Assembly (NCBI GenBank): GCA_903860135.1 | Contig: CAIOPG010000004.1 | Span: forward strand, 185,687-249,686 | Direction: 5' to 3' | DNA: 64,000 nucleotides | Source of the DNA: Candidatus Omnitrophota bacterium | Lineage (GTDB): Bacteria; Omnitrophota; Gorgyraeia; Zapsychrales; Fredricksoniimonadaceae | Shown here: piece after piece, positions 1 to 61,600 of the stretch | How positions within the stretch are numbered: the stretch's first letter is position 1 | Layout of the letters: every line of letters starts with the position of its first letter | Program-made: the position numbers and the translations under genes | Notes under the pieces: model-generated | The model's input: only the letters and a program-made list of their open reading frames with translations | Database searches by the model: none | What the model was told of the DNA's origin: nothing

Positions 1-173
1 TAACGCATGGTAACCGTCTGCACCACCCCGTCCCAAACACAATCCATGGCATATTTCCCGCAGAGATCCTCCAGGGTCGTCCCCGAATCCGCTCGATGCC
101 CCCCGCGCGGACTTGTCGCGCACCCCGCCAAAGCAACCAAAAAAACTGCAGCCAGCATATGGCACCAGAACAT
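1..173 (-). CDS. Lipoprotein, 5' part only (gene continues past window start); possible secretin-associated pilotin/PilP-like partner
   Basis: Hand translation of minus strand from ATG at 173-171: MFWCHMLAAVFLVALAGCATSPRGG..., a classic lipobox (LAGC) after a hydrophobic h-region. The ATG overlaps the secretin TGA stop by 1 nt, suggesting translational coupling. Not in the ORF track because it runs off the window. Confidence 0.35.
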   Translation of the reverse strand, partial: MFWCHMLAAVFLVALAGCATSPRGGHRADSGTTLEDLCGKYAMDCVWDGVVQTVTMR

Positions 174-1657: not shown

Positions 1658-1727
1658 ATATTTAATGCACGTTATTGTCTTGGAATTGACAAAGACTGTC
1701 AATGGTTAAAGCCGGATTGTTTCTCGC

Positions 1728-36938: not shown

Positions 36939-37679
36939 ATGCTTTTGACGGATATTATTTTTCTTATCTTCCTTGGTGCCTGCGCCGGTCTTGGCGCCTG
37001 GCGCGGTTTTCTGCGCGCCCTGATCGGTCCCGCGGCTTTCTTAATAGCCTGCGCGCTCAGCGGTGCCTATTCCGCCCTGACACATAAAATCTTTGAAAGC
37101 CTCCTGGTCCTGCTCTTGGGGCCGCCGATCATTGGCTGGGGTCTGAAAGCCTTAGTGCGCCGAAAGGATCAGGATCAACCGCTGCCGCCGCTCGCCTGCG
37201 TCAATCGTGTTTTCGGTGCCATCATCGGCCTGACCTGGGGCGGCGTCATGGGGCTTGTGCTCATCGCCATCGTCGTGATCCTGCCGCTGGACAGCTTCGG
37301 CCTCGGCGACATCACCCGGGATGTCCACGCTTCCGCCACCCTCGCCCTGTTCAGGCACCCGCTCGAAGCCTGGCGGCTGATCCCGCCAAAAGAAATAAAC
37401 GCATGCCTCGACGGCCTGTGCGGTATGCCGAAAAAAACCCAGACCTCACTCGCCCAAGACCAGGATATCCAGGAGCTGGCCCAGGATCCCCGCCTGCAAA
37501 AACTCCTGCTTGATCCGGTTGTACAAAAAGCCATCACAGATAAAGACTTCCCCGCCCTCCTGTCCAACCCGCAGATCCTCGACATCGTCCGCGACCCCGC
37601 GCTCGTGGCCAAAATGCTGAAAGTGTTCCCCAAGATCAGGGCCGCCCAGCAGGCAGCATCAACCTCATCATCCCTGTAA
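36939..37679 (+). CDS. cvpA: CvpA family membrane protein
   Basis: N-terminal TM helices LLTDIIFLIFLGACAGLGAWRGFLRALIG... typical of CvpA (colicin V production). 246 aa. Converges on and overlaps the giant ORF 3' end. Confidence 0.7.
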   Translation: MLLTDIIFLIFLGACAGLGAWRGFLRALIGPAAFLIACALSGAYSALTHKIFESLLVLLLGPPIIGWGLKALVRRKDQDQPLPPLACVNRVFGAIIGLTWGGVMGLVLIAIVVILPLDSFGLGDITRDVHASATLALFRHPLEAWRLIPPKEINACLDGLCGMPKKTQTSLAQDQDIQELAQDPRLQKLLLDPVVQKAITDKDFPALLSNPQILDIVRDPALVAKMLKVFPKIRAAQQAASTSSSL

Positions 37680-40600: not shown

Positions 40601-43600
40601 TAAACAACGCCGGCTTTCGTGCGCGGCACAGGCAACGTCACCCGCGTCGCATCCGCCGGAGCCCCCTGCTTGCCCTGCCCCACCATCTCAGGCGTGACCA
40701 CAGCCACCGGTGCCGCCACCGGAACGGCCGTCACTGCCGGGATAGCCATATCAACCTTAACCGCAGCCTGCACGCGCTCAGCCGCCTCGGCGGAACCTCC
40801 CGCCAACAGCATCCCCAGGATCATCGCCGCAGTGGTATTCTTCTTGCGATTATTTCTGTTTGTGATCTTTTCAATACCGAAATGCGCAATAACAATGCAA
40901 CAGACCGTCCACATCATATTCTCGAAAGAAGCAATAAAGAAACACATGAACGTTGTTGTTGCTACTGTCTTTATCCAAAGAGCACCTCGGCCTTCACCCT
41001 TACCTTTAATTCCCAACATATATGCAATTAATATAACAATAGCAAAATCCAAAGCAAGATCCAAAGCAAGATCCAATATTTCCAACTCATATTCCAAACG
41101 TGCAACGGCTTCATCCGTTTCCTCTTGACGGCTTCTATCGTCTACATCCCATGATGACGCCATGGCAGTCGGTTGGACAGCACGCGCCTCAGCTTGAACC
41201 GGAGCCGCTGTCGATAGCATGCCAAGGACCAAAAGTATGGAAGATTTCGCCGCAAACTTCTTCAATCCCAACGCACCGACCAACAGGCTCAGTCCGGCAA
41301 TCAAGCCACCCACCAACAGCCCCTCCTGGTTAACCATCGGGCTGACCCCAAAAGACCGCGCCTGAATCGCAGTCGCAGTCGCAGTCGCCGGAGTTCCAAA
41401 TTTGCCCTGGCCAGGGTTATCATAAACAACGCCGGCTTTCGTGCGCGGCATAGGCAGCATCACCCGCGTCTTATCCGCCGGAGCTCCCTGCTTGCCCTGA
41501 CCAGGTGCGTCATAAACAAAAGGAGCGTGTACCTTCGGCAGGGGCACAACAACCCGCGTCGCATCGGCCGGCGCGTAGGCAACTGGCGCTGGTGTTTGCT
41601 GCAATACGGCGCGTGGCATTGTTGCCGGCATCGCGCCTTCTTGAATAACCCGAACCTGATACCCTATACCTGTCATGACCGACAAGCCCGCGATGGCCAA
41701 CCACAACTTGACCTGCCGGATTGCTTTCGCCATCGCTGTCGGTGATTCAGCAACAACGACAGGCACCGCCATTTTCTTCTTGTTTCTATCCCGTCTCTGT
41801 TCCGACTGTGCTTTACGCAGCAAGAAAGATGGAACAGCTACTCGACCATTCCTGTTTACATAAAATGTTTGCCGGCTCTGATTCTTACGCCCGATCACAC
41901 TGCCCATCACAACCAGCAACCCGCTGATCATGTCCAGCGCACGGTTATGCCCCTGCGCGACCGGTATAACCATATCAACCTTAACCGCAGCCTGCACGCG
42001 CTCAGCCGCCTCGGCGGAACCTCCCGCCAACAGCATCGCCAGGATCATCGCCGCAGTGGTATTCTTCTTGCGATTATTTCTGTTTGTTATCTTTTCAATA
42101 CCGAAATGCGCAATAACAATGCAACAGACCGTGCACATCATATTCTCGAAAGAAGCAATAAAGAAACACATGAACGTTGTTGTTGCTACTGTCTTTATCC
42201 AAAGAGCACCTCTGCCTTCACCCTTACCTTTAATTCCCAACATATATGCAATTAATATAACAATAGCAAAATACAATATTTCCGACTCATATTCTAAGAT
42301 AAAACTTATCTTCTGACGAAACTCATAACGCGCGACTTCCTCATTCGTCTCTTCTTGAAATTTCCTATCGCCCTCATCCTCCCTATACCTCAACGCATCC
42401 GCCGGTGCGCCATTGATACCCTGGCCAGGATTTTCGCCGATAACGACGGGCGACGCTACCGCAGGCAGTTGAACGGCACGCGCCTCGGCCTGAACCGGCG
42501 CCGCTGTCAACAACATCCCCAGTCCCAGCAGGATGAAGAATCTCGCCGCGAACTTCTTCACCGCCCTACCGGCGGCAATCAAGACCAACAGCACGGCCAC
42601 ACCACCCACGATTTCCAACCCCCTGTGATCCTCAACAACAGGATTTTGCGACGAAACCCACCTTTCCTGGTGCCTTCTTTCCTGGCCAACCATATCAACA
42701 CGCGTCTTGTCCGCCGGAGCTGATACCTGCAAGGCATCCATTACCGCTGGCTGTGCCGCAAACCACAATTCAACGGCTGAATCCATAAGCCGCTCGTCCT
42801 TTGGAGTTGATACAACGATCTTGTTCACATCAGAAGATATTACCGCAGGCTTTGCCGTGACAGAGCCGGGAAATAACAGGGAAGCAACAACAATAACGGG
42901 GAGGACAACAGAAGTAACCTTGCGGAAGAAATTTGAAACCCGTAAAACCCCGACGGGCGGGCTGGCGTCGGCCATGCGGCTGGCCTTCACATCCGGGCCG
43001 GCGTGCCATAACCAGGCGATGACAGCACCAACAGCAACCAGCACCAGCACCCCACCCACAAACGCCAGCACCGGCGGGCTCATCAGCGCGGAGAGGCTCC
43101 AGGTCGACGGTATCATCATTAGAAATAGCGGCAAGGCAAGGCCGGGCATGGCGGTAGAAGAAGGCGGCGCCGTCTTCGGATGAGATTCCCGTGAACGCAC
43201 ATACTTCACAACCGTCCCAACAGCCTGGCGTGCAATGTTAAGGGTCTTTGAAAAAATACTGTTATTCTTGCCATGCTGGCTGCCCTTATCCTTGTTATTC
43301 GATTGATCACCCTTATTGTTCTTGTCATTCTTATTCCCACGACGTAAAATCTTTCTCTCCTTGAAAACGCCCTTTATCTGCGCCGCCAGCACCGTTCTGG
43401 TCATGCCGATCATCTCGCGCACCGAGCGGAAACCGAAATAGCCCGTACCGGCGATCCCTAACACAAATATCCAATTCAACCAGATCGGCATCGCCAACGC
43501 CGTCCCTGACAAGAAAATACCAAACACAAGGAATGTTATGACCAGACCAGCAAATGTTCTGATGGCCCAACGATCACCGAACATTTCAGCCAGGCGCCAC

Positions 43601-46600
43601 CCGGATAACTGATACCGGCCATAACCATATTTCACAAAACGATCGAACTTATTCAGCGCAACAATGGTCTTTGGATCTATCGTCTTACCCGTTTCAACAG
43701 CGCTGACCTCTAAGAAATATCGCACCAACGACCCCAAAGCCGCGCCCCATGAAATCTTCACATCCACAAACGTGCCAAAAACACTTGTTCCCGTCAATAA
43801 CGCAATACCTAATAAAATATATGGCACAATTGACACAGCACCAATGGCCGTTGAAAAAAGAAATGGTACAACCCCAGCTAAGATAATAACCGTCCCCATA
43901 ATGCCGACCATGGGAATGCCGACTAGATGCACACGCGTCATCGTGTGCAGAACACCGGCCATCGCAAACAGGATCCCCGCCGCAGCAAGGGCAAACCAGG
44001 GCATCCAGGTATGTCCAACAGCAAGAATACTTGCCGGCAAGAAAAACCCGACAAATCCGGCCACCAAAAGAACCGTGGCCAGTGCTGTAAGCGATTTCTT
44101 CAATCTCTTTTCTGTATGCGCACCAAACTTCAGCAAGCCTTTACTAAAACGCGTAAAAGTATCAAAAAGCGCAAAAAGCGCTGTGCGCGACGTCGGAATA
44201 AAAGAGAACTTGAAGTGACTCACCATGAGGGCACCTTCCACAAATGACCATAACATGCTGACACAATAAGGAAAAGCACGATAAACATCTTGAACGAAAA
44301 GATAAAAGCCATACCAGAAACTGCCGTACCTGTAAATATGCCGCAGTAAATTAAAAAGATTGACCGCGTTCATCAAAATAATACTGGCTAACAACCAGCC
44401 CCAGATAGGCATTAGATACGCCATACCGCTCCAGGCCATCATCGTCGGGATCGCTAGGGACAATATAAACCCGAACGCAACGACCAGGTAATGGAAGAAG
44501 TTCTCAAGTACGCTCAGCTTGAAATCTGCCCCAATATGTTTGTTGGTGAAAACTTTATACATCATCGATGACAATAACATATACGAAACGTTAAACACAT
44601 ACCGCACCTCAGTCCAAAAAACGGATTCAGCATGCAAGCACGGCCTGAGCCATTCCCAAACCCATGCTAACTGCGTTGTGGCATAAACTTCAGGATTGAT
44701 CTCTTTCTGTATCAGATACGCGCCAGAATCCTCAACCGGCGTCATGAGCAGGTTGGCACCGGCAGCCGGATTGATCATCGCCTTGCCATAAAAGAGTGCC
44801 ATACCCTTAAATCCCATCTGGGCAACCTGGCTGAACACCTGCTGCATAAGTTTGTAAACCCGACGTCCCGGATACGCAAAACCGCTCGATCCCCAGATCA
44901 GGAACGCCGGATTAATGACAACCGCTTCCGGATGACGACCCATGAACTCCGCCGCATTAAGCCGGTAGGGGTTGGATCCCGGCATGACGCGGACCTGCGT
45001 ATCCTGGTAGGCACACACATTGTTATGCAGCCAGATATTCAAGGCAATACCGCCATTCTTTAAAGTCGAGATGATCTCATCACCCTCATAGATCGGAACA
45101 TGGGCATTGGAGGCATGGGCGGATTCGAAGACATGTGCCCATTCGATCATGGCATTATATTCCTTGATCACCCCACCCTCGAGGAACAGGTCATAATGCG
45201 TCGCGCGGAACCCCAGCACAAGTGCTGCAAATTCCATCTTGTCGGCAAATACAAACCGCTCGATCCCGTCCATAAAGAACAAATGCTGATCATAATTTGG
45301 AAATTTCTGCGCTACATACGCCGCAAAAGCCCGATTCACCGCACTGGCACCTGCCTTTTGACCCGCACGGATCTTTTCCGCCACTGGCATAAAGGCCCAC
45401 TTATGCGTAGCATCGGCAAAGCCCTTCTCCTCAGCCAAAGCCCGCGCACGTTCATCATTGAGCAGGCGAATATTGGACCTTGCCGGATCAGCATTCTGCC
45501 ACATCGTTGTCATCATGAGCATTTGCATGATCTTCGACTTTGTTATTTCTTTATAATGAGGAAACTGGGTGTCGGTGATAAATAGCTCCTTGAGGTGGAT
45601 CTGCTCCTGCGTTCCTGTCAAGGCCCCGACCTTACTGGCGGCTACCCAACGCTCATATGCCTCCTGAAGCGAATCGAACTCCTGATCCGCCAGCATCACC
45701 GCGTGCCGGTAATCTGTATCCGCATTACTCATGCCTGCCAGGAGATGAACCGTGATCACGGCCTTGGCAAAAGAAGCCATGACCGCACGGTTGGCCGGAT
45801 CGATCTCGTCCATCATCGGACCCATAAGATTAACCGCAGCCAACACCGCCTCAGGTGACGTTGCATACGCCTTCTTCAATACACCCATGAAATCAAAATG
45901 CTCATCCGCCAGCGCCAGATCATCGGCGAGTGCGGCAAAACCCTGCAGACGTAATTTAGCGAGCATATTGGCATATTCCACCCCATGCGTGCGTGCCAGA
46001 TAACCGAACATGCTCGCCGTGATACTGCCTTGAAGGATTTCGATCTTCGCCAGCTCGGCATCGATCTTTTTAACAAGATCCTCATCAATTTTATTTTCTG
46101 TCAGTATTCTTTTAACACCTGTACGCGTAAAGTCCGAATAAAGCTCGGCAGAACCATTTTTGATCAAGGTCAACACCTTACCCACCATATTCAAGCGTTC
46201 CATGGCACCCATCCCCTTGCGGGCATAATGCATCTTGATCATTTTAGCAAGCGCACGCTCTTGTGGCGCATCGATCACCAGCGACATCGTCCCCTTGCCC
46301 AAAAAAGCTTCCGGCGTATGCGACACTTGCTCAATATAGGTCTGCACATTGGTAACCATCTGCTTGTGTTTGGCATACGTGTCCACTTCAACCCGGCGAT
46401 ACGCCGGTGAATTCATGTTCATATATAAATATTCCCGTGCCTGCTCCCCCTCGAGGCGAGGAAAATCCGTGCCAAGGTAAACCGCACGCCTTAAGAGCTG
46501 TCGTTCACGCGCATTGATGCGGCCCGACCTGTACAACTCGATCCCTAAACCATCTATATGTTCGGCAAAGGTGACCCAGTTAGGCAGGATATAGCCATAA

Positions 46601-49600
46601 ACATTCTCAACCCTCTGATATACCCGATTAACCCGTCCGAAATATTTCCTGTTGTCACGATCCCAATAAGGTCTAAACAGCGAGAAGAACAAATTATGCC
46701 GGGATCGCACCACGGGATTCCATATCTCACTGCGTGTCTGATAATTGGATTTAATAACACGATAAACAACAATGACAGGCTTGAGCATAACAATGGTGAT
46801 AATCGCCCAAAGTGCCGCCGTATTGAACATACCAAAAGTGCCCGCCAGCATCATCGCCGTATACCATTTACCAAACAAGAGCCACGCCAGGATTCCTTCC
46901 ACAAGGCTGTAGGTCGTTGAAACAAATACCCAGAAAGTCTTCTCGCCCTTAACCGGCATATACGAAAAGAGGACCGCTGACGTGGATATGGACCAAAATA
47001 GGCCGAACACCAATAGCCCAACCGACCCGGTCACGCTCAGCAGCCAGAAAGAACCTGCAAGCCCCGTCAGCATCAAGGCCGCCAATACCGCACGCTTCAC
47101 CGGAGAATGGACGCCCAGCGTATCCTGGAACGTGGTCTGATGCTTACGTCCCGTGGCACTGCGCTTGAATTTACCCAGTAGCCCTCCAAACAAGCCGTAA
47201 ATACGCTTGTACAAATGGAACATCCCCTTCTTCTTTTCAACCTCGATCTCTTTGCGGAAAGCGATCGGTGAATCAAGCTCAAGCATATGCCAGTATGCGA
47301 TCAAGAACGGCTTAAAGCAAGGCAGGAGGGTTTCCATATACAAATTCGCAGCCGTGTTCTTGCCCTTGTTCGCTGATACCGCATTGATGCGTTGTTGCAG
47401 TCGTGCAAACACACCGTAATCGGCCGTATCCGTATCCTTCTTCGCCAACACCACCTTGATGCTTTGTTGCAGTCGCGCCAATACGCCGCGATCTTCATCA
47501 TCCCTGCGGGAATTGTCTTTCTCCATATCCTCTTCGGCGTACTTAGCCTTCACGGTCTTTTCATAAAATGCCGCCAAGCCTTCAACTTCCTCTACCGTTA
47601 AACCAAATACGTTGGCATTCTTATTGATCACATCCCATGATAATTCAAACTTCGCCTCATCATTGGCCACCCTGCGGATCGGAGCTTTTCCGTTAACCTT
47701 GATCTTGGTCATGGCATCATAAATAATCGCCCCCCTGGCTCCAGCCGCCGCCTCAAAACCAGCTTGCTTGAATGTTCCCTGCCGGGCTTTCAGCAATTCA
47801 CAACCTTCCAACACCATGGCTTCCCGCTCAGCACTTGTCTCGGCCACCTGCGCCAGCATCGCTTCAAATTCTTCAAAAACATCCATGTTATATGCCTCCA
47901 GGCTTGCTTCACGGCTAATATTTGTCCGTATAAGGCGCTTGGATAAATTCTGGAAGAAATACAATATCTTCTCGTCATAGAAACCATGTGTGAGCGTAAT
48001 GTTGCCCTGCTTTTTAATACCATGTTTATCAGAATCAGCCACCCAATTGTAGATCCCCTGCATTTCATTTGTCACATGCTTCAAGTTGTTCATATAGAAC
48101 AAATACCGCCAGAACCGGACATTCTGCCGGATAAAATCATGGTATTCTTTCATGGCCTGGGGATTAAGATTGGCGTCAGGATAAGCATTTCTCCTCTTGT
48201 CCATGAACCAATGCGTAAGGAACAGGACTTCCTGGAAAATGAAACCATCACCGCCAAAAGATAAATGCTCGGTTTCGTTGCGTGGCGACTGCATATATTT
48301 AAAGAAAAGATACGCCTCAAAAGTAACAGGTTCAGACGCCTTAAAGACCGTTGTCGGATTGCCGATAAAATTCATCTGCGCATAGGTCAACGGCATACGC
48401 GACGGCCGCTGGGCGACCTGGAACTCAAACTCCGCCAGCATCTGCCTGTAATAATCCTCCTTGTGCGTTTCTGTCGCAAACGACAACCCATGATAAACAA
48501 TGAATTCATCTATGCGGTTGCGCAGGACTTTTTCACGAATAAACATCTTTACAACATCGTTGAATGAATACAGCGCCTTATTCAAAGACAACGCCTCGGC
48601 ATGCTGCGCAAGAGCTTCCTCAAATCCAGCGTAATGATGTTCTAACAAGTGCACAGCTTCCCTGGCTTCAGGCGTCCTTAAACGGTAGAAGATGGAATGA
48701 TCCTTCGCCCCCTCATTGCCCGCCCTGACCTCAATGACCTTATACAGTTCCTGGATGCTGATTACTTCAAGGCTCTTTTCCTGCGTGTACTTCCGGGTGA
48801 TATCGCTCTTGTGTTTGACTTCAGTAATACTATAAATCCGCGCCAGTTGATTCTTGAATTTAAGCGTTGTGCTAACAAGATAAATGAGATTGGCATAGAT
48901 AGGCTCAAAAACCGCACGTTCATTACTGGCCATCTGACGCTGACGCTCCGCCTCAGCCGCCTTGAAAAGTTCTCTAAACCCAGGAATCGGGATTCCCGCC
49001 TCATCAAACTGCGTTTTCTTGGCATCCATGATCTGCTTGATCGTATTGTTAGAAACCTTCTTTGTCGCCGCATACGCATCTATCTGCTTTTTAGCGAGCT
49101 TAAGAAGAACAGCGTCAAATGAAAGGCGGTGAGTAAATGGCTCCGTCACAGCACTCCCCGGCATCCTTGCCGCCTCGGCCACAAGAACATCGAGATTATG
49201 CTTGGCCAAGAAAGCCCGCAAGACAGGTTCAAGTGCCCGTTCAAAAGCCGCATCGAGTGCTTCGGCAATCGTGACCTGCAAATTCTTATTACGGCGTTTT
49301 TCAACCTCAACCAAAGCCGCCTTCAACCACGCCCGCTTGCCCGCATCATCAAGTGGCAGAACCCTTTCGAGCAGATCCATGATCCCCACCGCATGGCGAA
49401 CACCCTTGGCGGCACGAACCCGTATCATGGTCAATAGGTCACCTGTTGTCAGCGGATCCTGAAGCAACGACTCCAGATGCCATGCCTTTTCCACCTTGTC
49501 CAGTATCGACGCCAGCCTAACCATCAATGAAACCAGCGGCCGACCCTCAAGCCGGGCCTTGATCGTCGTATTGGCTTTGATAACGCGCCTGACTTTATCA

Positions 49601-52600
49601 AACGCCCCCTTGATCCAAAGCGCCCTGCTCCTAGCCGCTTCCTCACTCCTGACCGCCTGCATATAATCCCTGGCATTCTCATCAAAGCTGATCACCTTTT
49701 TTTCATACATGGCAACAAGTTGCTCTACCTGCTCAGAATCCATTCCGCCCGCTTCCAAGCGCTCGCGCACCGTATAAGCATCAAGGATCTGTTTCTCCAG
49801 ACGCTCTAGGCCTCCGTGTTCCTCAATATTATCCATCGCCTGACGGAGTTTGCTCCTATTCTCCTGGTAAGCTTCATAAGAAAGCACGCCATCCCTGTAG
49901 GCACTCTTCCAGCCAGTCTCAATGGCATTGATCTTGTCCGTCAGGGAATATTGAGACTCAACATCTTCCCTGTTATCATCGGTGATCAAGTCGTACGTTT
50001 CAAGAAAATGCATCACATCCGCTTTCTTGCCAGGAACAATCAGCCCGTTAGCCAGATCAAAGGCGATCTTGGCCTTTGCCAAGGCTACCGCTTCTTCATG
50101 CGATAACCCGCCGCGCCGCTCAAACACCTCCACAATCTCATCGAGAGGCATCTCATGGTTCAGTTTAACCGTCCCGTAATGACGTGCCCAATAATCACGC
50201 AAACGACGTACAGACGGGAACACAGAGGACGTCAATGTCGCCAGCAAAATCGCCGCCAAAATAGGCAGTGTCAAGATCAATAACCAGTGCTGATTCACAA
50301 CATCATTATAAATCGGCATATCCGCTGATGGGTTGCGTGCAACGCTCGATGTGACAGAAGGTTCTTGCTTTTCCGCAGCCTGTTGCAGCGGCGTCCAGAT
50401 TTTCTGCCTGACACTAATATATTTTCCATTGATCGACATGACGCTTTTATCATTAAGCCCCAATGACATTAACGCACGCCCCGTCAAGGAATTCGAGAAA
50501 AGATCCAGATTGCTATTCTTATAAACTTCCCCATAAAAACGCTCACCATTAAGTAAATTAATAGTCTTGTTTATTGGATCCATCGCAAATACAGCAACAA
50601 CCTTGTTGTTCACAGAAAGCCTGGACAAGATCTCCGTATTATCTTGCGTCACCGGCACCTGGCGAACTTCCCTGACGATCGTGCCATCCGCAAGCTCAAA
50701 ATACCGCGTCATAAATGTGCTGTACTGATGAATATCCAACGTCGTCCTTGATCTTTCAGGACTCTTTAAATACTCCAAGGTGTTATCAAGATTCGTTAGC
50801 GTCCCGCCAAGGTGCATGGTGTACGCCGGCTTTCCGTCATATGTAACCTGAACAAAATGCTCTTTAGGATAAAACTCTTCAATCTTCCCGGAATCAAACC
50901 AATAAAGAATCTTGATCTGCGCCTTGGCATTAAACTCATGCTCTTGACGCCATTCATACAGCACAGAATAACTGTAGCAATGCGCAAAGGCCTGTTCGAA
51001 TTCTGTCTTGCGCACCACCCTGTTAGTCTCGGGCTGAACCGCCACCTCACCGGAAGCGACCATAAATGGCAATGCCATCTTCCGGTCAAAATAACCCTTT
51101 TGCACACTTCGGTATTCCATGAAACGATAAGCATTGTTTTCGATCTTGATCACATCCACAGGCAACGGGTCATTATCTGGAATATAACGCACCAAATTAA
51201 GATCAACTTTCTTGGTTGTATCATTCAAAGAACCCAACAAAGTACGCCGTTCAATCCTGATCAAGTTCTTATATCCTAGGAAAGCAAGATCCTTCTGCCT
51301 CTCAGCAAAGCCAATGACCTTATCCAACTGTTGCTGCCTGTAAAATTCCTCAGGCGCGATCCTTCCACCCGTTTTCTCAAAGTAAACATCACCTTGATGT
51401 CCCGTCGTTTCAGCGCGTGTCATGATCCCGTAAGCCTCGCTCGCCATTTGTTTATCAAACTGCGTGTTCACCACAAAAGTCGCATCTTCAACAAGCGGCG
51501 CTGACTGAAGTGCCACAATGTGGTTCTTGGGGTCTTCCTTGAGTTTCCGGACAAGATGCGTACCATTACCGATAATTTTCAAACGAGACTCAACAATATG
51601 AACGTCCCCCGTAATGCCCTGTTGTTGCTTAAGCATGGCAATCGTTTGGTCAAACTGCTCCAGCAATGTAACTTCCCGGCCATTGATATTGCCTTTAATA
51701 TTAAAGACCTGTTGACGCGCCTGTTCCAATGTTAACGTCAGGCTGTCTTGCGCCACCTCGATAAGCCTGGCATCCACAAAACGATTGGGATCATTTCTGT
51801 CCTGCTTGAGCACATACGTATAGGTGATATCCCCGCGGGTGTATTCCATCTTCCACCCCCAGATGCCGCCAAAATCAAGCGGAAAGATCGAACCAGGGAA
51901 ACGATTCGGCTGAAGAAGCGTTCCCCGCGCAAAATGATATTTTCCATCCTTGGGGTTATACGTATAAGCAGCTTTAACGCTCGGATGCGTAAGCACAGCC
52001 TTGCGTATCACCTCAGGTGACAGTGTCAAAACCTGCCTTGTTGGCGTATAGCTGACTTCATGACTAAAGTCAATGCCACGGGCTTGGCTGAAATTATACA
52101 TACGGCTTGTCCTGTCAGGGAACAACACCTCTACCATGCCGCTAACAGGCTTGCCATCACGATAAGTATCTGGATACCAGCTAATGAGCTTTTCCCCAAG
52201 GAAACTCTTATCATAATTGCCTTTGCTTGTCGTCTCTTTATCCGTGAGTGCAATCGCCGTGGCAAATAAATTCGTGGATGCATTGCTGGGATTTAAAATA
52301 TCCGAAACTTTAAGCTCAACATTCTTAAAATGAATTTTACCTCTTTCCACAACATAATTGATCGGCGTACGGCGGCCGGCAATGTAATCATCAAAACCAT
52401 AAACCTTGAGACCCTCGACAATCTTGGATCCCTTGCGGTCATCCATCAAATAGAAAGCCCCCAAGTTACGCGTCGTACCGTCACCAACTAAGCCAAGTTT
52501 GTCACCCTTTTCCACGTGCAGAACATCCACAAGGTCATGCCAATAAGCCTGCACCTGATTCAAAGTTACAAATACCTTATCCTTCCACTGCGCCTTCGCG

Positions 52601-55600
52601 CTGTCCTGCCGCGGGAACTCGACAAGATACGCACTATTCATCAAAGCACTTCCCTCTTCGGGGTCATTAAGTTCACAACGAATGATCGGTTGGCCGACAT
52701 CCATCCTGACAAGCCGCTGCGCCAGGCTCATATACTCAATCGTATTCCCGCCCAATGGATCCATATGGTCGATCGACAGCACATACTCCGCATATTTTGG
52801 AACTTCCTTAAGGACCTGTTCTTTACTGCTGAAGATCTTCGATGCTTTATCCTTGAGGACGACCACATAACTGCTCTCGTTATACGGGCGCTTCTTCAGC
52901 TGGGCGATTGACTCTTCGAGCGCCCCCTTCATGGGCTCAAGGATGATCGGATACGCACTGGTGATCGTCTTGCCGCCCAGCGTATACGTCCCTGCCGGCA
53001 GGACCATTGCATCACCGGCGCCCATAGGTAGCAGAATGCCGTTAACCTTAAGCGCAAACCGCTTCGTCTCCCTGTCATAGATAACCCCCATGCGCGCCAA
53101 CGCCTGATCCGTTCCCTTCCAATACTTGAGCGGTATCGCAAGTTTAAGATCCTTCCTGGTCAAATAGGCATATTCTTCCTTAGATACAGCCACAGGCAAT
53201 ATCCCCTGAACAATCGCCCGGCCCTGACCGTCATACATCGCCTTAAGCGTTTCAAGCACATCCGGCGAAAGATGAACCACCTGGCCATCACGCGTCATGA
53301 GGATGCTTGTCTGACCTTCCGATGAAACGTCACCGGTTACCGTGATCTCACGATTAATGGGCTGAGGGTCGACACTGTTATACGGCACCACCATATCCAG
53401 GTTTTGGATCGTCGTAGCATCGCGTGGCGTGCCTGCCGGGAGCTTTAGATCCTTATTTTTGTTCTTAACAACATCCAACGTAACCCCGCGCGTCAAGCTG
53501 AAGCCTGGGACCAGGCTCTGTCCTGGAGTAATACCCAAATTTGTCCCAATGCCAATATCAACGCCGCCACTAGCCTTCCAACCAGCGAACGTTTGCAATC
53601 CGCCCACCTTGGCCGAAAGACCAGCGCCGTAATTACCGTCGGAATAGAAACCATTCAAATGTCCCACTGTCCCGTTAATGCCAAGCCTGCCGTCATGGCT
53701 GTAAACAAGACTCGCCGAACTTTCCGCGCCCATCAGCGTGCCATTCAACGCCAGGCCGGCGAATGACGTCACACCAGCATTCTGCCGGCGCTCAACGCCC
53801 ACAGAAACCTTCAAGCCCTTGACGATCTCATACTGGTAAACAGCGCGTGCAAACTGCTCCGCCTGTGCCGCGCTCAGATTAATCTTTTCCGAAGGAACAA
53901 CATTCCCCTGGGCATCACGCAGCCGATCGTGGGTGAAGGCATCCCAATACGTGAACTCAGCGGTTGTATTGGCTGTCCCTTGGGTACGGCCTACTTCCAC
54001 CGTGATCTTGCCGCCATTCAAGATGGCATTACTGACCGCCGCCTGCACATTCGTCCCATAGGTGCGGGCATTGTTCTGATCCGCCCAGGCAACAAAACTA
54101 TCCCAGCCAAGATAAACAGATACCTTGTTAGAGCCGTTATCCGCCACATCGCGCTTAAAGGCAACGGCATAATCCAGGACGGTGGTGTTGGTATTCACCG
54201 TCGTATGACCAGCGTCACTCGTTGGATCATGGGCATCGAGAATAAGATAATTGGATTGTCGATACTGCGTAAGATTAAACGACGAGTTAAAGATCGTCGT
54301 CGGATTATACGTCAGCCAATTTACAGTGGCTGCTGTCAGGGACACAGGCGCAGCCGTCGCATCATAAGGCTGACGGCTTCCGGCACCGAGCGTCCACGTT
54401 GCACCATTAAAAAGCGGCCGCGTGGTGGAGCCAAAAGATACCGCCGTCCCATTATGGATATTGTTGGTAGAACTGCCCATCGCAGAAACTTCCGGCGTCA
54501 GGACAACAACCACGCCCGCCTCGTCCACAACATAAGCAGCCGCCTTGATGCGCGCCGCAAATTCCCCCTTCACCAGGCTGATGGCACTGGCTTCCGCCGC
54601 CGGCGCCAGATGAAGGCCCTTGATAACCTGCAGGGCCTTTTCAAGTTCTTCCTTGATCCGCTGGCTATAGACGGCTGCTTCTGCCGTGTACCGGGCAGAT
54701 ACCTCCAGGCGCTGCTTTTCAGCCGCCGCCATCTGCGCCTCAATTGCCTGAGCCGGAGCATAAGCATCCATAACCTGTTGCCGCGCATTATTCCGGGAGC
54801 CCAGCGCATCGTTGACAGCCCTCGAAGCCCCGGCACCGTTAGCCACCGCATTCCTGAGGTTATTCATCACCTCATCGGCAAATTCCTTGTTTTTCTTCAT
54901 TTTAGCCGCAACGTCCGGCGTAAAAATCGAAAGGTCATCAAATCCCGTCCGTAATTTCTGACTCAACCGCAAATTCTCGGCCCACAATGTCGACATGGTT
55001 TCATTGAAGCTCAGCGCATCCTGCGCCAACAACATAATGGGCCTGTCAAAATCCAGTTCACTGCCATGCGCGATGGCCACACGATCCATGGTCTCAACAT
55101 TATTGATCAGTGCTTGAACCGTAGCCGTAGCCTCCGGCGTCAAATTCTTGCCCTTCTGCAAATATGCCACTTCACTCATGATCTCCGTATGCCGTGCGCC
55201 CGTATAATACGGAATATATTCGGCAGGATCCTGCAACGGAATGTTCTTGAAATCCTGAACCGATACTATGATCGAGCTATCAAACAAAGTCTTGGTTTCA
55301 TTCAGGATCGCAATGTTTTCTGTCTCAATGGCGGTCTTCTCCGAAACAACCGCATCAAGATTAACAGGGCTGTAACCAAAATACTGCGTCGTCGGAGCGT
55401 TTCTATATAAAGCCTTGCTATTCTCAAGTACCGCGATATCTGCCTGCAGATTAGCGATTTTTTGATTAAAAACATTCGTCAAAGAAACAGGATTGTAGTT
55501 GAAATACTGTGTCGTCGGAGCACTCCGGTATACGTCCTTGCTTTGATTTAACGCCGCAATCCTGTCATTTATAATAGCGATCTTTTGGTCGACAACAGCA

Positions 55601-58600
55601 TATGGATCAAACCCGCCTGATTGCAAATCCACGGCATCCTGATTAACACGCGCCAGATCTGCAACGGCCACTAGCCGTTTTGCTGCCGTTTCATCTACAG
55701 CCTTTTGGAGAAACCCTGCCCACACCGTATCCCCTGCGGCTGTCGCCTTGTTCAGCTCGGCATTCCAATACGCAAGTCCGTTCTCAAGGGACTGGATATA
55801 ACCACCTGTTCCATTGGAACCCAAATAATAATTACGCGCCGCCTCTATCTGCGTTGGCGAGAATAAGACAGTAGAGAAATGCTGGCTTTCCATAAGATTA
55901 AGATTGTCGATATACCCCTGATTCGTGGAAATTTCGGCATCAATCAAGCTAACCTGCGATTGAATATAAGCCGCCGCATCATTATCCACAGACGGATCAT
56001 ACCTGGTCATATCTGTCCTGTCCTGCATAACGCGGACAAGATTCGCTCTGGCAGCCGTTAATGTGATCTCCGTGTTAGCAAGACAGCTTTCAAGAAACTG
56101 TACCCGCGCAGTGTCCCCTGCGGCATTCGCCTTGTCCCGTTCGGTATTCCAATACGTACGCCCATCTTCAAGAGACTTGATATAACCACCCGTTCCGTCA
56201 GCACCAACGTAATAATCATGCGCTGCGGTTATCTCTGCCTGCGATAAGAATACCGTCGAATAATCATTCTCCCTCGCCTTCGTCTGCAGACTGGCAAGAT
56301 TGTTCTGCGCTTTAAGAATATCGGCATCGATCTTATCGATCTGCCCCTGAAGGAAATTCGCCGCATCCGGATTAACAGCAGGGTCACTCAAAACCATATC
56401 CTTTGCATCCTGTACCACACGACCCCAAGCGCGCTCAATATTTATCTGTTTCCTCTGAGCAAGGCTCAATGCCTTCTCAAGAATCCCGATCAATGTGGGG
56501 TTCCCCTCGGCTTTAGCTAATTGCTGCCTCCAGAAAACAACAGAATTCTTCGCTTCCTCGATAGCCCCCACATTCCCATCCTTACCAAGGTAATAACCCC
56601 TCGCCTTTTCCATATCCGCTGGCGAAGAATATACCGTGTCATAATTGTGAGTATTCTGCAGGCTGAGCGCGGCAATATTTTGCTGGCTTTCAAGAATCGC
56701 CGGCGCGATCGGATCAATATAAGTCGACTGAATATACGCCACCGCCTGCTCATTGGTGGTAACAGTCTCTGGCGTAAAATAAAGCCGTCCCCACAAAAGC
56801 GGCGTTATTTCAGCATACCGGCGCATGACCGTTGCGCCGTCTGCAAATGATTTCACCTGTTTCGCTGCCCAGTCAAGGGCTTTGTCGTCGAACACCCCAG
56901 GGATCGTATTATAAAGCGGCGCGGTCTCCATCCGCGACAACCCGATCGATGAATGCAGGTACTGCAACTGATCGATCCTGGCCTGATTAACCGGCAGGTC
57001 CGCATCAAACGATAATCCGGCACCAGTCTTTTCTGCCTTGCGCACCGCCGACTGCGCCTGCCCTGCCAGCGCATACTGCTGAAGGTTCGAGCTCTCGATC
57101 TGCCGACCCAATTCCGTCAGCGTCCCATAGCCCTTTCCAAAACGCTTGAAATCCACGCCGCTCAAGGCCTGCTCCACCGCCGCATCCACCCGCAAACGAT
57201 TGCTCTCATAATCCGTCGGTATTGTTACTAACATCGGTACTTCAGGCACGGCCGTCAAATTACCCAAAGAATCTTCCGTTACACCTTTTGCATCCGGGTT
57301 CTCCTTAAATTTCTTCACGAGTTTCTTGTCATTGGAGCTGTACTCCATAAGCCCAACTTCACCGGGCTTTATACCCGGTCCATCCGTAACGATATTGCCT
57401 TGGGTGATATATTCCTCCGGATTGAGCCCACGGCTTCCCAAATACGTCTGGAACTTCAATTTATTATCCTCGCTCAGCGGCTCCACTTGGTATTGCTTCA
57501 TATCTGCCTGCGTGTACAAATATATAATCCTATCCGCAAGAATAATGCGTGCCAGCGACAATCCCGGCAAGGCCTTCGACAGATCAATATAAACCTCGAT
57601 CGTATCCTTGGTCTGACGCCCCGGCAGGCTCACGCCAGCGGGCAACAGCTCATACGCTGAACCACTCGTCAAATAGATCGGCGACGGAACCTTGTCCCCA
57701 AACGTCTTGCCCTTGTCAACATGCTGCGGCTCGACCTTAAAGGTGCCGACCGCATCAGGAGCCGTACCCGGACGTCTTTCCACCAATTCATAAACACTTT
57801 CCGGATGCTCCAGCGTCGGCTGCTGTTTCAACCTGAATACGAACGTCACGCCCGTGTGTACATCCCGGTCAAACGTGCCGCCCAAGGCAAAAGCCAGCGA
57901 CGACAATGTTTCTTTGGCGCTGGACAAAACAACGGCAAATACCGGCTTCGCTGGAACAAGAACATCCTTATCATCACGATGCTCCGGCCACATCAACGGC
58001 TTGCCTTCAGGCGTCAAGATCGGCCTGTCAAGATCCACCAACGCAGGCACCCACTGATATCTTCCGTCACGGAATGTTGGAACAGCCTGTATATCAAACC
58101 GGTGCTTTGTGTCATCTTTCAGATAAGAATCACCAAACTTCACGCCCGCAGACGGATTCACAGCAATACCCCTGTTCTCCCGGCCATTTTCCACACCCGC
58201 CTGCAAGCTCCTGGCCATAGCCGCATTCTGTTCCCTCTGCCTGCGGCTGATGATCGGTGCCACCTCCCCTTCATGCTGGAACAAACCAACACTCTTGAGC
58301 CATGCCGCTTTGAAATCCTCCAGCGGCGCATACAAGCCATCTGTCGTGCTGCCTTCAAAACGGAACACCTGGAACATCTCTGTCACACCCTCTTTACCCT
58401 GTGTGCTATACAGCTTGTTCCGGTCGATCTTGTAATAAATGAGGAACTGATCGCCCGGCAAAGTCTTGCTTTTCTTCGTCACGGACGTACCCTGGACAGG
58501 ACGGGATCTGACCCATGTGATGTTCTCATCGGTCTCATTATCCGCCGTTGTGTTGATCAGTTTTTCCATATCTCCCACAACAGCCGCCCATACATGACGC

Positions 58601-61600
58601 TTCAACACAAACGGTTCGTTGGTTCCAAACACATCCTTGACATACGGAATATTACCAAGGATTGACTTCAATAAACTTGTCGGAACTTTAATGATCGTCA
58701 GGCCTGTGGGCACTACGCGCTTACGATCACCCGTGTTAATAACATTGCCGTCAATAATATAACTGAACCCGTTATCCGTACGGCTGACAACATAACTTTC
58801 TTCGGCATCAGGGCCTCTAAAACTACCCGCAAAATTAATCGCCTGATCAATAACCCCGCCCACAGCCCAAACCCTGTTAAGCGTGGTCGTGAAAGGATCA
58901 CTCTTGCGTGTAGCCGCAGCAATAAGATTCGACAGGGACGTACTCCCCGGCACGGTTGGCCCGACACTCAAAAGAGACCCGAGACTATACGCGCCGCTGG
59001 GCATCTGATTATCAAGAATTACCCGCGCGTCTAATATCGACTGATCATCGCTCGCCCCGTTCTGCCTGGCAACGTTCAAGGCTTCCTTCTGCAGGGCTGC
59101 TGGCGTAAGATACTGCCCTAGCCATAGATTCTTCACAACACCAACAGCAGCTTCTCCGGCTTGTCTCGTCAAGGAAGAATTCTCCGGGGCATTGCCCCTC
59201 AACCGCGCAATTGTTTCCTCCAACCGTTCCTTTTCTCTCTTCTGTTTCGCCAATTCCTTCGCCGGATTATTGCTGAGATCATTCCCCCTATACCAATTCT
59301 CCACCGCTGTCAAAACTGTTCCCGGCAAACCCTGTGTCTTGTTCAGGCGGATCCTGGCAATGCTCACGGGCTTGCCATTCTGGCGGATCTCAACCGTATA
59401 CCCGTCCTTGGCCGTGGCCGAAGCAAATACCTCACCCGCCGTCGCCGCCTTGACCATATTAATATCCGTCAAGCCCTTGTAAACAACCGTAACATGACCC
59501 GAAGCGATCTCCACAACGCCCTTGCCCATCATCCGCGGCGTACCCGTCAGAATGGAGCGCACATGCGCCACTGAAGCCCTGCGCTCCTGCTGTCTAACCC
59601 CACGTTCGAACGTTACCCCCTTGATATGTGTCACCGAAGAACCTACAAGCTGTATGGACTCGGCCACCGGATCAATCTTGCCCTTGGGCAATGCGTACTG
59701 CGTCACCGGTGTCGGCAGCGCTTCAGACGCTGGCTTAAAGCCCTTGCGCAAGGAGTCTGGCATAACAGCCGCTTTAGACGAATCCAGCCCACCAGCCGTA
59801 GTGTCGAGCACGATCGGTGTGCTCGATGCCTGAACCTTAACAACCGGCTCTTTCTGCTGCGCAGAACAGCCCGCCAGCGCCAGCATCGCCACCAGCGATA
59901 AAAACCGCACGCTGCCGCTCATCCATCCATTCTTCTTGCCCCTCAACAGCGCTGGCACAAAGGCGCCGAGCATGAGGAGCGTCGCTAAACCATTGCCAGC
60001 CATACCAGCCAGTGTGAAATCGTTTGTGGAGGCCGGATTAAGAACAGGAACGGAGGGATGTCCTGTTAATCCAACCTCCACGCCCGCGACAGATTTGATT
60101 GCCGCAGGTTGTTGGGTGACGGACCCGAAATGGGTTGTTTGTATCAAATGATGTGTGAGAGCCGGGCCAAGAACAGTGGCGGAGGGATGCCCTGTTGACC
60201 CGACTCCCACGCCTGTGACAGACATATCTGCCTCAGGTATTTGGGCGACGAACCCGAAATTTATTGTGTTAAATGTTTGATGGTGTGTGATGAATTGATG
60301 ATGAGGATACGCATAAGCGCGCGCGGGAACTACTGTCTCAGCAACAAAAGCTGTTTCATCAGAAACAGTTTTACCGGCTCTCCAGGTTTCCCCTTCAGCC
60401 GTCAAATCATTCCTTACTGTGAATCTTTGCTCAACAAAATGAATCACTGGCTGTTCCGCGTCCTGTTGACGCCCAACAGCCACAAATTCTCTTGCTGATA
60501 AAGCTATAAGACCATAATTATTACGCGCATCCCGATTATCGTCAAACCGTGATTCACTAAACGTTGACGAAACCCTGGAAGCCGTAACAACTGACCATAT
60601 CAAAGAATAACTTCCTGTCGTATATACCACTTCTTCAGGGGCAGATACTTCAGGTATATTCCTTGTTAAGCTACCAACAGTTCCTTCTATCTTGTTCGCA
60701 GTAGAATTACCGAAACCTCGACCATTTGTCCTGCTAGAAGGATAAACACCCGTATACGTCTTAATTACGGTTGTTGCTTTTTCTGACGCACCCTTAATCC
60801 CAAGAACAACCAGCTCTTGCTGACGGGCATTCGTCACGATCCATTCAGGTTTAGTCAACCCATAATTCGGCTGATACACCTGATGAACCACCAATTCCAT
60901 ATCCTGCGTGTTAACAGGTAACCCTGAAACAGGTGCAGGTACGTTCTTGCTTTCTTCAGCCAACCAGCTTGCGCCAGTCGGGATATTTTCGTTCTTTCCG
61001 CTATAGTTCAACGCAGAAACAGAGCAATTGTTCGTTTCTACAGTAAGTGCTGCCTTTGAAACATTGCTGCTAACAACGTCACTACGATTTCCCTGAGCGC
61101 GATTGTAAGCCTTTGAACCGTCAGCCAGGAAATTAGCCGGTTCAACGCTTGTGCTGTTAATGCCATATTTAACCGATGCCCCTAACGCACGCTGGACATT
61201 CACGTTTGCTGCATTGTACAACATGTTCATGCTACGTAAACCATCTACAGTAAGCGCTACATCATTTGTCCAATCAGTCTTTGCGATCTTCTGTCCAGAG
61301 ATTGAACCTTCTGAAACAGAGCCGTTGTTAATGCCATCGATCTTAACCTGTATCCGGCTATTCTTTACGACCGTTACCACGTGAGTCGGACGAACCGTGG
61401 CAGTGCCGTTATGGCTGTTTAACCCTTCACCACTCTGTCCATCGTTTGCGACATCTTGCGCGGGCAGAGCTAGCGCATAGAAGCCGTTTTTCTCGTTACC
61501 TACGACCTCATCGACCTGTACCCCTAACGCATTCCGGGCACCCTCGTTCGTTACAAGAACAGTATTCGTTGCATTTCCTGCATTCCCTTGTCCTAACCAC

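Follow-up and report, generated by a model that had tools for sequence, protein, structure and literature searches.

The window analysed here, a 64,000-nucleotide stretch from a Candidatus Omnitrophota bacterium, carries a secretin gene at 173-1702 and, on the minus strand, an open reading frame for a protein of 8,757 residues. The presence of the secretin gene suggests a diderm host, so an outer membrane is likely. A preliminary description had flagged positions 53450-54130, inside the giant open reading frame, as a possible integral outer-membrane beta-barrel; coordinate mapping places this interval at aa 3260-3487. The giant open reading frame is a real gene, because it is collinear over aa 1143-3848 with a second protein (P0001), at 30-37% identity. 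Whole-protein searches of Pfam and NCBIfam matched only pentapeptide repeats at the C-terminus, and SecA_DEAD was absent from the whole-protein Pfam result. The features relevant to the flagged interval are the following:

37636..63909, minus strand, giant open reading frame of 8,757 aa, from the ORF list and its translation; contains the flagged interval
59944..60000, minus strand, hydrophobic helix at aa 1304-1322 followed by RGKK, from a hydropathy scan and K/R counts; conserved in P0001
59866..59922, minus strand, internal lipoprotein-type signal at aa 1330-1348, MSGSVRFLSLVAMLALAGC; N-terminal boundary of the presumed extracytoplasmic segment
54520..56712, minus strand, helix-looking repeat region at aa ~2400-3130, adjoining the beta region on its N-terminal side; identified by eye from the translation
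54148..54507, minus strand, T/N/S-rich stretch at aa 3135-3254, upstream of the flagged interval; poorly conserved
53848..54132, minus strand, N-terminal 95 residues of the flagged interval (aa 3260-3354); mixed alpha/beta, better conserved, free of beta alternation
53464..53847, minus strand, core Gly-rich amphipathic beta-meander (the module) at aa ~3355-3482; ~10-11 short strands
53464..53493, minus strand, last module strand TRGVTLDVV, then the Lys-rich linker KNKNKDLK; relaxed beta-signal pattern only
50227..50283, minus strand, transmembrane (TM) helix at aa 4543-4561, hydropathy 2.36; C-terminal boundary of the presumed extracytoplasmic segment
43450..47088, minus strand, downstream hydrophobic-helix clusters at aa 5608-5715 and 6465-6820, and further ones as far as aa 8395; from the hydropathy scan

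The signal at aa 1330-1348 combines a positively charged n-region, a hydrophobic core and the lipobox LAGC, which ends at Cys1348, and P0001 has a matching lipoprotein-type arrangement (MSYGFQLLSLVGLLSLAAC). At the other boundary, the TM helix at aa 4543-4561 has no K/R in the preceding 15 residues and four after it, so that by the positive-inside rule the side holding the flagged tile would lie outside the cytoplasm. Judged from these sequence features, the ~3,200-residue segment between the signal and the TM helix, which bears the module, is most likely extracytoplasmic in a diderm envelope. The Peptidase_M23 domain of P0001, on what is inferred to be the module's side of the membrane, is a further basis for a periplasmic placement. 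The preliminary description had also proposed inner-membrane-like helical bundles downstream, and the hydropathy scan located them in the clusters listed above.

The region directly N-terminal to the beta region contains an internal repeat, with aa 2573-2639 resembling aa 2701-2769 at 48% identity, and may form a helical stalk, its helicity being read by eye from the translation. It is followed by the T/N/S-rich stretch, which is 36.8% N+S+T+Q, shows period-2 z values of -0.6 and 1.1 when taken as aa 3135-3259 (-0.4 to 1.0 for aa 3135-3254) and shares few conserved columns with P0001. The flagged interval opens with 95 residues (aa 3260-3354) that form an alpha/beta segment separate from the beta module, with period-2 z values of 0.8 and -0.4 relative to shuffles and conserved motifs, among them YL.W..F.AW and F.YW, in the alignment with P0001. 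A low-confidence AlphaFold model placed helices in this segment. No second copy of the tile was found elsewhere in the giant protein (best E 0.03).

Alternation was measured as the mean period-2 hydrophobic moment, compared with shuffles of the same residues so that composition was kept. For aa 3355-3482, z was 2.6-2.7 on the Kyte-Doolittle scale and 3.4-3.7 on the Wimley-White scale (two runs), and among all 120-aa stretches of the giant protein this one scored highest, level with one other. Amphipathic dyad windows hold 88% of the module residues, and the coverage in the module and P0001 (0.88-0.90) was greater than in every control. The strict alternation originally described over 230 residues is therefore good over ~128 residues (aa ~3355-3482) and absent from aa 3260-3354. 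The enrichment in G, Y, W and F proposed at the same time holds for glycine, which makes up 19.5% of aa 3355-3482 and 14.0% of the flagged interval compared with 7.2% protein-wide, but not for the aromatic residues, since F+Y+W is 8.8% in the flagged interval and 8.7% protein-wide. Charged residues (K+R+D+E) account for 13% of the module.

In a hand-drawn table, whose strand borders are uncertain, the module strands average 8.8 aa (range 6-11). There are ~4.5 hydrophobic-face positions per strand, several hand-delineated strands having only 3-4, and after discounting glycines and polar residues, 7 of the 11 strands retain four or fewer hydrophobic-face residues. Turns are mostly 0-5 residues long, with one of 8, and are short on both sides, without alternation. 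Hairpins were assigned at aa ~3357-3445 by DSSP of the low-confidence AlphaFold model, and hairpin units of ~18-26 residues recur along the module, each closing with ..[YF]S.DG or ..GG. The ending strands, described earlier as containing F or W, do so in LQTFAGWKAS and SLVPGFSL, whereas the final strand, GVTLDVV, is without an aromatic residue. Two resemblances suggested by eye were set aside: RHS/YD repeats (VYSHDGRL, FVYDLNGMI) had no PF05593 match at E<=10 and none elsewhere in the protein, and a LytM-like resemblance was unsupported by Pfam and BLAST.

An exhaustive phmmer search of 1.84 billion representative proteins returned P0001 as the sole homologue covering the tile, with 33% identity, and 31% at the module. 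Its contig (NCBI GCA_037141995.1, 13.7 kb) holds only a fragment of the gene. The equivalent stretch of P0001 has period-2 z values of 2.8 and 2.5, the hydrophobic and polar faces of the two proteins agree in 89 of 94 assignable aligned columns, 38 of the 128 module positions are invariant, and indels sit at turns of both parities. Identity is 39% on the polar face and 27% on the hydrophobic face; we discarded this difference as a clue, since it is all due to glycine (9 versus 10 non-Gly identities). No further homologues were found by a word-index search with the tile, by a search with the two-sequence alignment, in GTDB genome contigs with a 1,200-aa query, or in JGI metagenome contigs with the tile alignment and a better-conserved upstream alignment. 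The module thus represents an orphan, conserved Gly-rich beta-hairpin domain with two members known among 1.84 billion representative proteins.

The preliminary description had assigned the interval to OMP or autotransporter beta-domains, and in the profile searches this assignment found no counterpart: at E<=10, Pfam gave no match to OMP_b-brl, OmpA, porin or autotransporter families for the tile, the sub-tile or the P0001 equivalents, the only match to any of these queries being a spurious one to PG_binding_1 (E 0.1-0.4). NCBIfam gave no match in the module's half of the giant protein, sequence and profile searches of the PDB gave no OMP match (the weakest hits were a capsid protein and a glucanase), and hmmsearch and hhalign comparisons with E. 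coli OMP controls gave noise and no preferential similarity. AlphaFold2 models had mean pLDDT values of 29.8 (single sequence) and 29.9 (two-sequence alignment), too low for the fold to be read and as expected with an alignment of only one or two sequences; Foldseek of the 29.9 model found no match in the PDB at E<0.5.

We then relied on comparison with controls, which were E. coli membrane barrels (10), soluble beta proteins (22 for polar-face Gly), TamB and fimbrial subunits; streptavidin served only as an informal control. The period-2 moment was dropped as a test for barrels, since OmpA scores no higher than TamB and the fimbrial subunits. Amphipathicity of this kind is not diagnostic of barrels, being equally strong in soluble fimbrial subunits and TamB, and alternation of hydrophobic and polar residues alone cannot separate membrane barrels, soluble beta domains and lipid-groove proteins. 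A beta-helix fold of the passenger type was rejected, since the Ag43 passenger is without a period-2 signal (z about -0.5) and the module has one.

F+Y+W amounts to 7.8% in the module and 10.4% in P0001; nine of the ten E. coli barrels have 11.9-16.9% and the soluble beta controls have 3.4-9.7%, the exception among the barrels being that of Ag43, at 7.9%. The aromatic fraction of the hydrophobic face is 0.12 in the module and 0.18 in P0001, and 0.18-0.30 in those nine barrels. Polar-face glycine is 0.31 in the module and 0.16 in P0001, compared with 0.10-0.22 in outer-membrane barrels and 0.00-0.14 in the 22 soluble beta controls. The strands of the module are Gly-rich, with a small/polar face of the lumen type, which is compatible with a barrel and insufficient to establish one. 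Charge on the hydrophobic face is 0.05, as low as in barrels. A composition classifier with a leave-one-protein-out AUC of 0.97-0.98 on E. coli proteins scored the module at 0.51-0.63 and the P0001 copy at 0.71-0.80, and nearly all soluble-control means at 0.05-0.41, which puts the module between the barrel and soluble classes; these scores are weak evidence, as the classifier transfers poorly and also flagged alpha-helical TM regions at aa ~5137-5233 and 6417-6481. The strict, aromatic-ended beta-signal was absent from aa 3000-3600. A relaxed form occurs at the last strand, at the same aligned position in the module (TRGVTLDV) and P0001 (SEGVTFGV), and is not significant (P=0.32) because the motif is common, at 0.29-0.95 per 100 aa. 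The alternation of short turns and long loops typical of OMPs is lacking, and the smallest control barrel, OmpX, has 148 residues in 8 strands, compared with 128 residues in the module. Strands of ~9 aa, as drawn by hand, would be short for spanning an outer membrane, which takes about 9-10 or more residues per strand, about 5 of them facing lipid.

Our best explanation, held tentatively and at somewhat less than even confidence, is that the module is a small soluble or peripheral beta-meander domain. In this proposal, aa ~3355-3482 would form an autonomous Gly-rich antiparallel beta-meander of ~10-11 strands, each 6-11 residues long, with tight G/N/D turns between them and with one hydrophobic and one small/polar face, placed after the long helix-looking repeat region and within the presumed extracytoplasmic segment. 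With the hydrophobic face turned inward, the result would be a small, water-soluble, at most membrane-peripheral, all-beta domain, and an up-and-down barrel or sandwich of avidin/lipocalin size would fit. The domain would act as a structural or binding part of the protein's exposed region, rather than as an integral outer-membrane barrel. The soluble reading is favoured because the alternation is confined to ~128 residues with its register conserved in the sole homologue, because soluble meander barrels are of similar size and have strands about as long as those of 128 residues in ~11 strands, because turns are short on both sides, unlike the short-turn/long-loop alternation of OMPs, and because aromatics are low and both an aromatic-ended beta-signal and OMP family matches are absent. 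The amphipathicity itself needs no membrane, as the fimbrial subunits and TamB indicate. In published work, more than 900 giant proteins of Omnitrophota were screened with DeepTMHMM and no credible beta-barrel emerged (bioRxiv 10.64898/2026.06.07.730766). Counting against the soluble reading are polar-face glycine above all 22 soluble beta controls in both homologues, the classifier scores (0.51-0.80), amphipathic coverage above all controls, the scarcity of charges (13%), and the relaxed beta-signal strand followed by a Lys-rich linker in both homologues.

It is unlikely, in our judgement, that the module is an integral outer-membrane beta-barrel of 10-12 strands. BAM would have to assemble such a barrel from the interior of a chain whose alpha-helices hold it in the inner membrane, and the chain would thus tether the two membranes. 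The amphipathic dyad pattern conserved in register, the glycine content, which both overall and for the polar face reaches or exceeds OMP values and surpasses every soluble control, the classifier scores and the low charge of the hydrophobic face would all suit such a barrel, as would the relaxed beta-signal-like last strand with its basic linker in both homologues. In P0001, aromatic residues also cluster near both strand ends (by eye), the segment is probably extracytoplasmic, with the M23 domain of P0001 on the same inferred side, and the secretin gene in the window points to an outer membrane. However, no OMP or autotransporter family was matched at any threshold, aromatic content is below that of nine of the ten control barrels, and the strands are ~9 residues long, seven of the eleven with four or fewer hydrophobic-face residues and with tight turns on both sides. 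Moreover, every control barrel is longer than 128 residues, only the relaxed beta-signal, which is not significant, occurs in place of the strict aromatic one, and the classifier transfers poorly, marking alpha-helical TM stretches of the giant protein as well. The more specific arrangement, a minimal barrel of 10-12 strands in ~128 residues, with inner-membrane anchors provided by the lipoprotein-type signal/helix upstream and the alpha-helical bundles downstream as a single-chain tether, we regard as rather unlikely. No earlier case is known to us in which a barrel lies inside a chain, with thousands of residues and inner-membrane helices to either side of it, a literature search turned up none, and a topology that would link the two membranes of a diderm through one covalent chain is known to us only from multi-protein assemblies. 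A true barrel here would make a single protein an integral part of both diderm membranes, and would raise the questions of how BAM handles a substrate that lies inside a chain with thousands of residues around it, how such a giant is exported, whether it fixes the distance between the membranes, and whether it builds contact sites.

We consider it improbable that the module forms an amphipathic beta-sheet that is open or acts on membranes, either a groove of the TamB/AsmA/Lpt type, which would here be short, hydrophobic and suited to binding lipid or a partner's strand, or a pre-pore hairpin array entering the membrane of another cell during predatory or episymbiotic contact. The per-128-aa z of TamB (2.9 and 2.1) is comparable to that of the module (2.7 and 3.7), the repeated hairpin units with their common endings are consistent with an array, and the M23 peptidase of P0001 suggests action on cell walls. 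In predatory Omnitrophota, giant proteins have been suggested to serve as devices of attack at the cell surface (bioRxiv 10.1101/2023.11.21.568195). Nevertheless, AsmA, TamB/DUF490, OstA and pore-forming-toxin families were unmatched in Pfam, and TamB-like grooves span hundreds of residues and have a charged outer face, with K+R+D+E at 21.7% in TamB compared with 13% in the module. A predatory lifestyle of the host would also be an assumption: the MnmG of the window has its best match in an Omnitrophota MAG at only 51% identity, barely ahead of Gammaproteobacteria, and many phyla reach 47-51%. That the module is without a discrete fold, being a disordered or low-complexity Gly-rich linker in which composition alone produces the alternation, is highly improbable: pLDDT was ~30 in both AlphaFold runs, glycine is 19.5% and the family is unrecognised, but such pLDDT values are expected with a one- or two-sequence alignment, the composition-keeping shuffles are still exceeded (z 2.6-3.7), and the register of the faces is kept in 89 of 94 columns at 31% identity, with 38 of 128 positions invariant.

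The giant protein as a whole resembles those reported from other Omnitrophota (West-Roberts et al. bioRxiv 2023; Nielsen & Lui bioRxiv 2026), which also comprise open reading frames of several thousand residues with many TM helices and large, presumably extracellular regions, are mostly unannotated, and have wall-degrading domains in relatives (here, M23 in P0001). It differs from them in that SecA_DEAD is undetected and pentapeptide repeats are the only Pfam domain. Neither of the two studies reported beta-barrel modules.

Within the module, the antiparallel amphipathic strands and polar-face glycines resemble those of OmpX, the OmpA N-domain and OmpW (clan MBB, e.g., OMP_b-brl PF13505), as do the low charge of the hydrophobic face and the pattern of the last strand, polar-x-G-x-x-hydrophobic-x-hydrophobic. 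Unlike these small outer-membrane barrels, the module has no profile match, fewer aromatics and shorter strands, and lacks both a side with long loops and an aromatic residue at its end; it is 128 aa long rather than at least 148 aa, and is internal to a chain of 8,757 aa instead of standing alone or at a terminus. The covalent joining of a putative barrel to large non-barrel parts is shared with the beta-domains of autotransporters, intimin and invasin, and the Ag43 beta-domain control is similar in its low aromatic content (7.9%) and strong period-2 signal. Barrels of autotransporters and inverse autotransporters have 12 strands in ~250-280 aa, lie at the chain terminus and are detected by Pfam. 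In contrast, the module has no PF03797 match and is internal, with 5,270 residues after it that include alpha-helical TM bundles.

Very strong period-2 amphipathicity is also a property of TamB and AsmA-like beta-taco proteins, which are envelope-spanning, inner-membrane-anchored proteins of diderms (PMC11014939), as the giant protein may be. The groove of TamB is ~1,200 aa long and rich in charges, whereas the pattern in the module extends over ~128 aa, and AsmA/DUF490 matches are absent in Pfam and NCBIfam. For the calycins (avidin/streptavidin, lipocalins such as E. coli Blc, and YceI), no Pfam match to Lipocalin, Avidin or YceI and no PDB match was found for the module. Unlike the module and P0001 (0.31 and 0.16), Blc, YceI and streptavidin have polar-face glycine of only 0.07-0.12, and their polar-face charge, at 0.30-0.47, is higher than the 0.24-0.25 of the module and P0001. 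Calycins are nonetheless extracytoplasmic proteins of ~125-170 aa, with 8-10 short strands and a mixed aliphatic/aromatic hydrophobic face, and the module is like them in the size of its meander, its short strands, its tight turns and its mixed hydrophobic face, and probably in lying outside the cytoplasm.

The giant protein is encoded by a single frame in both the ORF list and the translation, and the interval from 53450 to 54130, where an outer-membrane barrel had been proposed, corresponds to its residues 3260-3487. Pfam and NCBIfam searches of the whole protein annotated nothing besides its C-terminal pentapeptide repeats.

37636-63909, minus strand: giant ORF, 8,757 codons
~37675-38112, minus strand: pentapeptide repeats, C-terminal ~150 residues (Pfam PF00805, E 2.8e-18)

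Residues 3130-4329 were compared exhaustively by phmmer with 1.84 billion representative proteins. The sole protein covering the interval was P0001, a 4,584-aa fragment (E 9.9e-75, 33% identity) whose gene fragment wholly occupies a 13.7-kb NCBI MAG contig; no additional homologues were found to deepen the alignment of the interval, and six further matches were restricted to regions downstream of it. Since P0001 is collinear with the giant protein across residues 1143-3848, the ORF is a real gene. A plus-strand ORF of 341 codons (53929-54954) lies wholly within this gene and overlaps the interval, and is most likely spurious, because it is the minus-strand frame that is conserved in P0001. Residues ~4081-4327 (50929-51669, minus strand), which had no Pfam match, are more widespread than the remainder of that part of the protein, with about 240 residues common to five other large proteins, P0003-P0007 (608-6,432 aa, 28-34% identity).

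Alternation was measured as the period-2 hydrophobic moment relative to shuffles of the same residues, using the Kyte-Doolittle and Wimley-White scales.

Period-2 alternation (z, Kyte-Doolittle; z, Wimley-White)
Residues 3355-3482: 2.6-2.7; 3.4-3.7
P0001 equivalent of residues 3355-3482: 2.8; 2.5
Residues 3260-3354: 0.8; -0.4
Residues 3135-3259: -0.6; 1.1

Among the giant-protein regions tested, only residues 3355-3482 gave a significant signal, and they form the joint-highest 120-residue window for this moment in the entire protein. Hydrophobic and polar faces, assigned separately in each homologue, agree with P0001 in 89 of 94 aligned columns. Because the signal is confined to this stretch and the pattern is kept in P0001, the strict alternation ascribed to some 230 residues is a real conserved feature of only ~128 residues; the N-terminal 95 residues of the interval are part of another segment, which is mixed alpha/beta and better conserved. 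Of the reported G/Y/W/F enrichment, the glycine component stands (19.5% in the module and 14% across the interval, vs 7.2% in the whole protein), whereas F+Y+W are not enriched (8.8% vs 8.7%).

Strands were delineated from the P0001 alignment and the DSSP string of a low-confidence model, which predict ~11 strands of 6-11 residues (mean 8.8), joined by mostly G/N/D-rich turns of 0-5 residues and one turn of 8, with repeated hairpin units of ~18-26 residues. One face carries V/L/I/A/F/Y/W and the other G/S/T/N with ~24% charged residues. Few parts of the module are as well conserved as its last strand, TRGVTLDVV (SEGVTFGVV in P0001), which a Lys-rich linker follows in both proteins.

To calibrate the barrel reading, we used E. 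coli K-12 controls comprising 10 established barrels, 22 beta-rich soluble proteins or protein segments (with streptavidin among them as an informal control) and 11 general proteins. Alternation, which had been taken as an OMP or autotransporter signature, does not discriminate barrels from other beta proteins: the scores of OmpA, OmpW and the Ag43 barrel are equalled by those of TamB, FimG and ElfA. The aromatic residues speak against a classical barrel, with F+Y+W at 7.8% in the module and 10.4% in P0001 vs 11.9-16.9% in nine of the ten barrels, and hydrophobic-face aromatics at 0.12 and 0.18 vs 0.18-0.30. Polar-face glycine argues in favour of one (module 0.31, P0001 0.16, barrels 0.10-0.22, all soluble controls 0.00-0.14). 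A logistic classifier built on composition and moments (leave-one-protein-out AUC 0.97-0.98 on the control classes) scored the module 0.51-0.63 and the P0001 copy 0.71-0.80, intermediate between classes, but it wrongly flags stretches of TM alpha-helix in the giant protein and therefore transfers poorly. The relaxed beta-signal (polar-x-G-x-x-hydrophobic-x-hydrophobic) matches the last strand of the module and of P0001, but is unconvincing: proteins of every kind contain it 0.3-0.95 times per 100 residues (chance occurrence here, P 0.32), and a motif search of residues 3000-3600 found no version with an aromatic end. Geometry also leans against a barrel. Several strands have merely 3 or 4 hydrophobic-face residues, and indels relative to P0001 fall at turns of both parities; unlike the short-turn/long-loop pattern of OMPs, the module has tight turns on both sides and packs ~11 short strands into 128 residues, whereas OmpX, the smallest control barrel, uses 148 for 8.

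Family searches gave no support to the expected OMP or autotransporter profile. At E<=10, Pfam searches with the tile, its sub-tile and the two equivalent stretches of P0001 returned no OMP, porin, OmpA, autotransporter, AsmA/TamB, OstA, lipocalin or RHS family; the sole match, PG_binding_1 (E 0.1-0.4), was judged spurious. Neither phmmer nor profile searches of all PDB sequences with the module region found a relevant match. Structure prediction reached a mean pLDDT of 29.8 with one sequence as input and 29.9 with the alignment of both homologues, and Foldseek with the latter low-confidence model gave no match below E 0.5.

These results establish a conserved orphan Gly-rich amphipathic beta-meander of ~128 residues, which falls outside every described family and sits in a probably exposed stretch of the giant membrane protein. 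We tentatively favour a soluble or membrane-peripheral all-beta domain with its hydrophobic face inward, because of its size, strand length, turn pattern and aromatic content, and the lack of a convincing beta-signal or OMP family signal. Such a domain would be a structural or binding part positioned after the long helix-looking repeat region. An integral outer-membrane barrel would accommodate the unusual glycine pattern, low charge, very high amphipathic coverage and intermediate classifier score, but is unlikely given the absent family match, low aromatics, non-aromatic beta-signal end, short strands, two-sided tight turns and small size. An open lipid- or membrane-active sheet is slightly less likely again, and a non-folded linker is highly improbable because the face register is conserved.

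Where the all-beta module would lie was considered from hydropathy and the encoded envelope genes.

Residues 1304-1322, minus strand: hydrophobic helix, then RGKK (hydropathy scan)
Residues 1330-1348, minus strand: lipoprotein-type signal of textbook form MSGSVRFLSLVAMLALAGC, lipobox LAGC (sequence)
Residues 4543-4561, minus strand: next hydrophobic helix, K/R 0 in the 15 residues before and 4 after (hydropathy scan)
41965-42645 and 40741-41343, minus strand: copies of a TM-containing duplication
173-1702, minus strand: GspD/PilQ-like secretin (Secretin_N, GspD N0 and Secretin domains)

By the positive-inside rule, residues 1349-4542, module included, are probably extracytoplasmic. The helix, the RGKK loop and the lipoprotein-type signal behind them (59866-60000, minus strand, residues 1304-1348) lie beyond residue 1,300 of the ORF; this whole arrangement, including Met, Cys and lipobox, is kept in P0001, and could point to an internal start, to processing or to an anchor in the form of a helical hairpin. 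Upstream of the anchor, on the same predicted side, P0001 has a Peptidase_M23 domain (aa 140-280, Pfam E 2.3e-22), which fits an extracytoplasmic, wall-directed role. In the giant protein, residues 1109-1135 (60505-60585, minus strand) match the first ~27 residues of that M23 region at 44% identity and the rest is missing, suggestive of a lost domain. Of the motifs shared by the two giant proteins, the best conserved is GY.VEIRQNGKPV (residues ~1500-1540; 58900-59400, minus strand), which shows a putative resemblance to the LytM/M23 C-terminal strand, minus the catalytic histidines; BLAST against the P0001 M23 domain gave E values no better than 0.3-1.1.

As the window encodes a secretin, an outer membrane is most probably present in this organism; the neighbours of the secretin gene are the housekeeping genes mutL, mutS, mnmE, mnmG and purH. 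The best match of MnmG lies in an Omnitrophota MAG (51% identity), with numerous phyla reaching 47-51%, so that membership of the Omnitrophota is tentative on this marker. The inner-membrane-like helical bundles noted downstream were borne out by the hydropathy scan as dense alpha-helical TM clusters from residue 5608 onward. A module of ~200-230 residues with TM helices is duplicated at 66% identity (residues 7089-7315 and 7523-7723), and shorter repeats occur at residues 2573-2639/2701-2769 (48%) and 1207-1250/1251-1293 (57%). With the module putatively extracytoplasmic, an outer membrane likely and TM clusters downstream, an envelope-spanning architecture is topologically possible; that one chain is integral to both membranes is, on our estimate, quite unlikely. 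No credible beta-barrel was reported among more than 900 giant Omnitrophota proteins screened (bioRxiv 10.64898/2026.06.07.730766), and we found no literature precedent for a single-chain envelope-spanning protein. On the best-supported reading, the module is another unannotated beta module of a giant surface-associated protein; only if one chain did prove integral to both membranes would the finding be categorically new, the known envelope-spanning systems being multi-protein.
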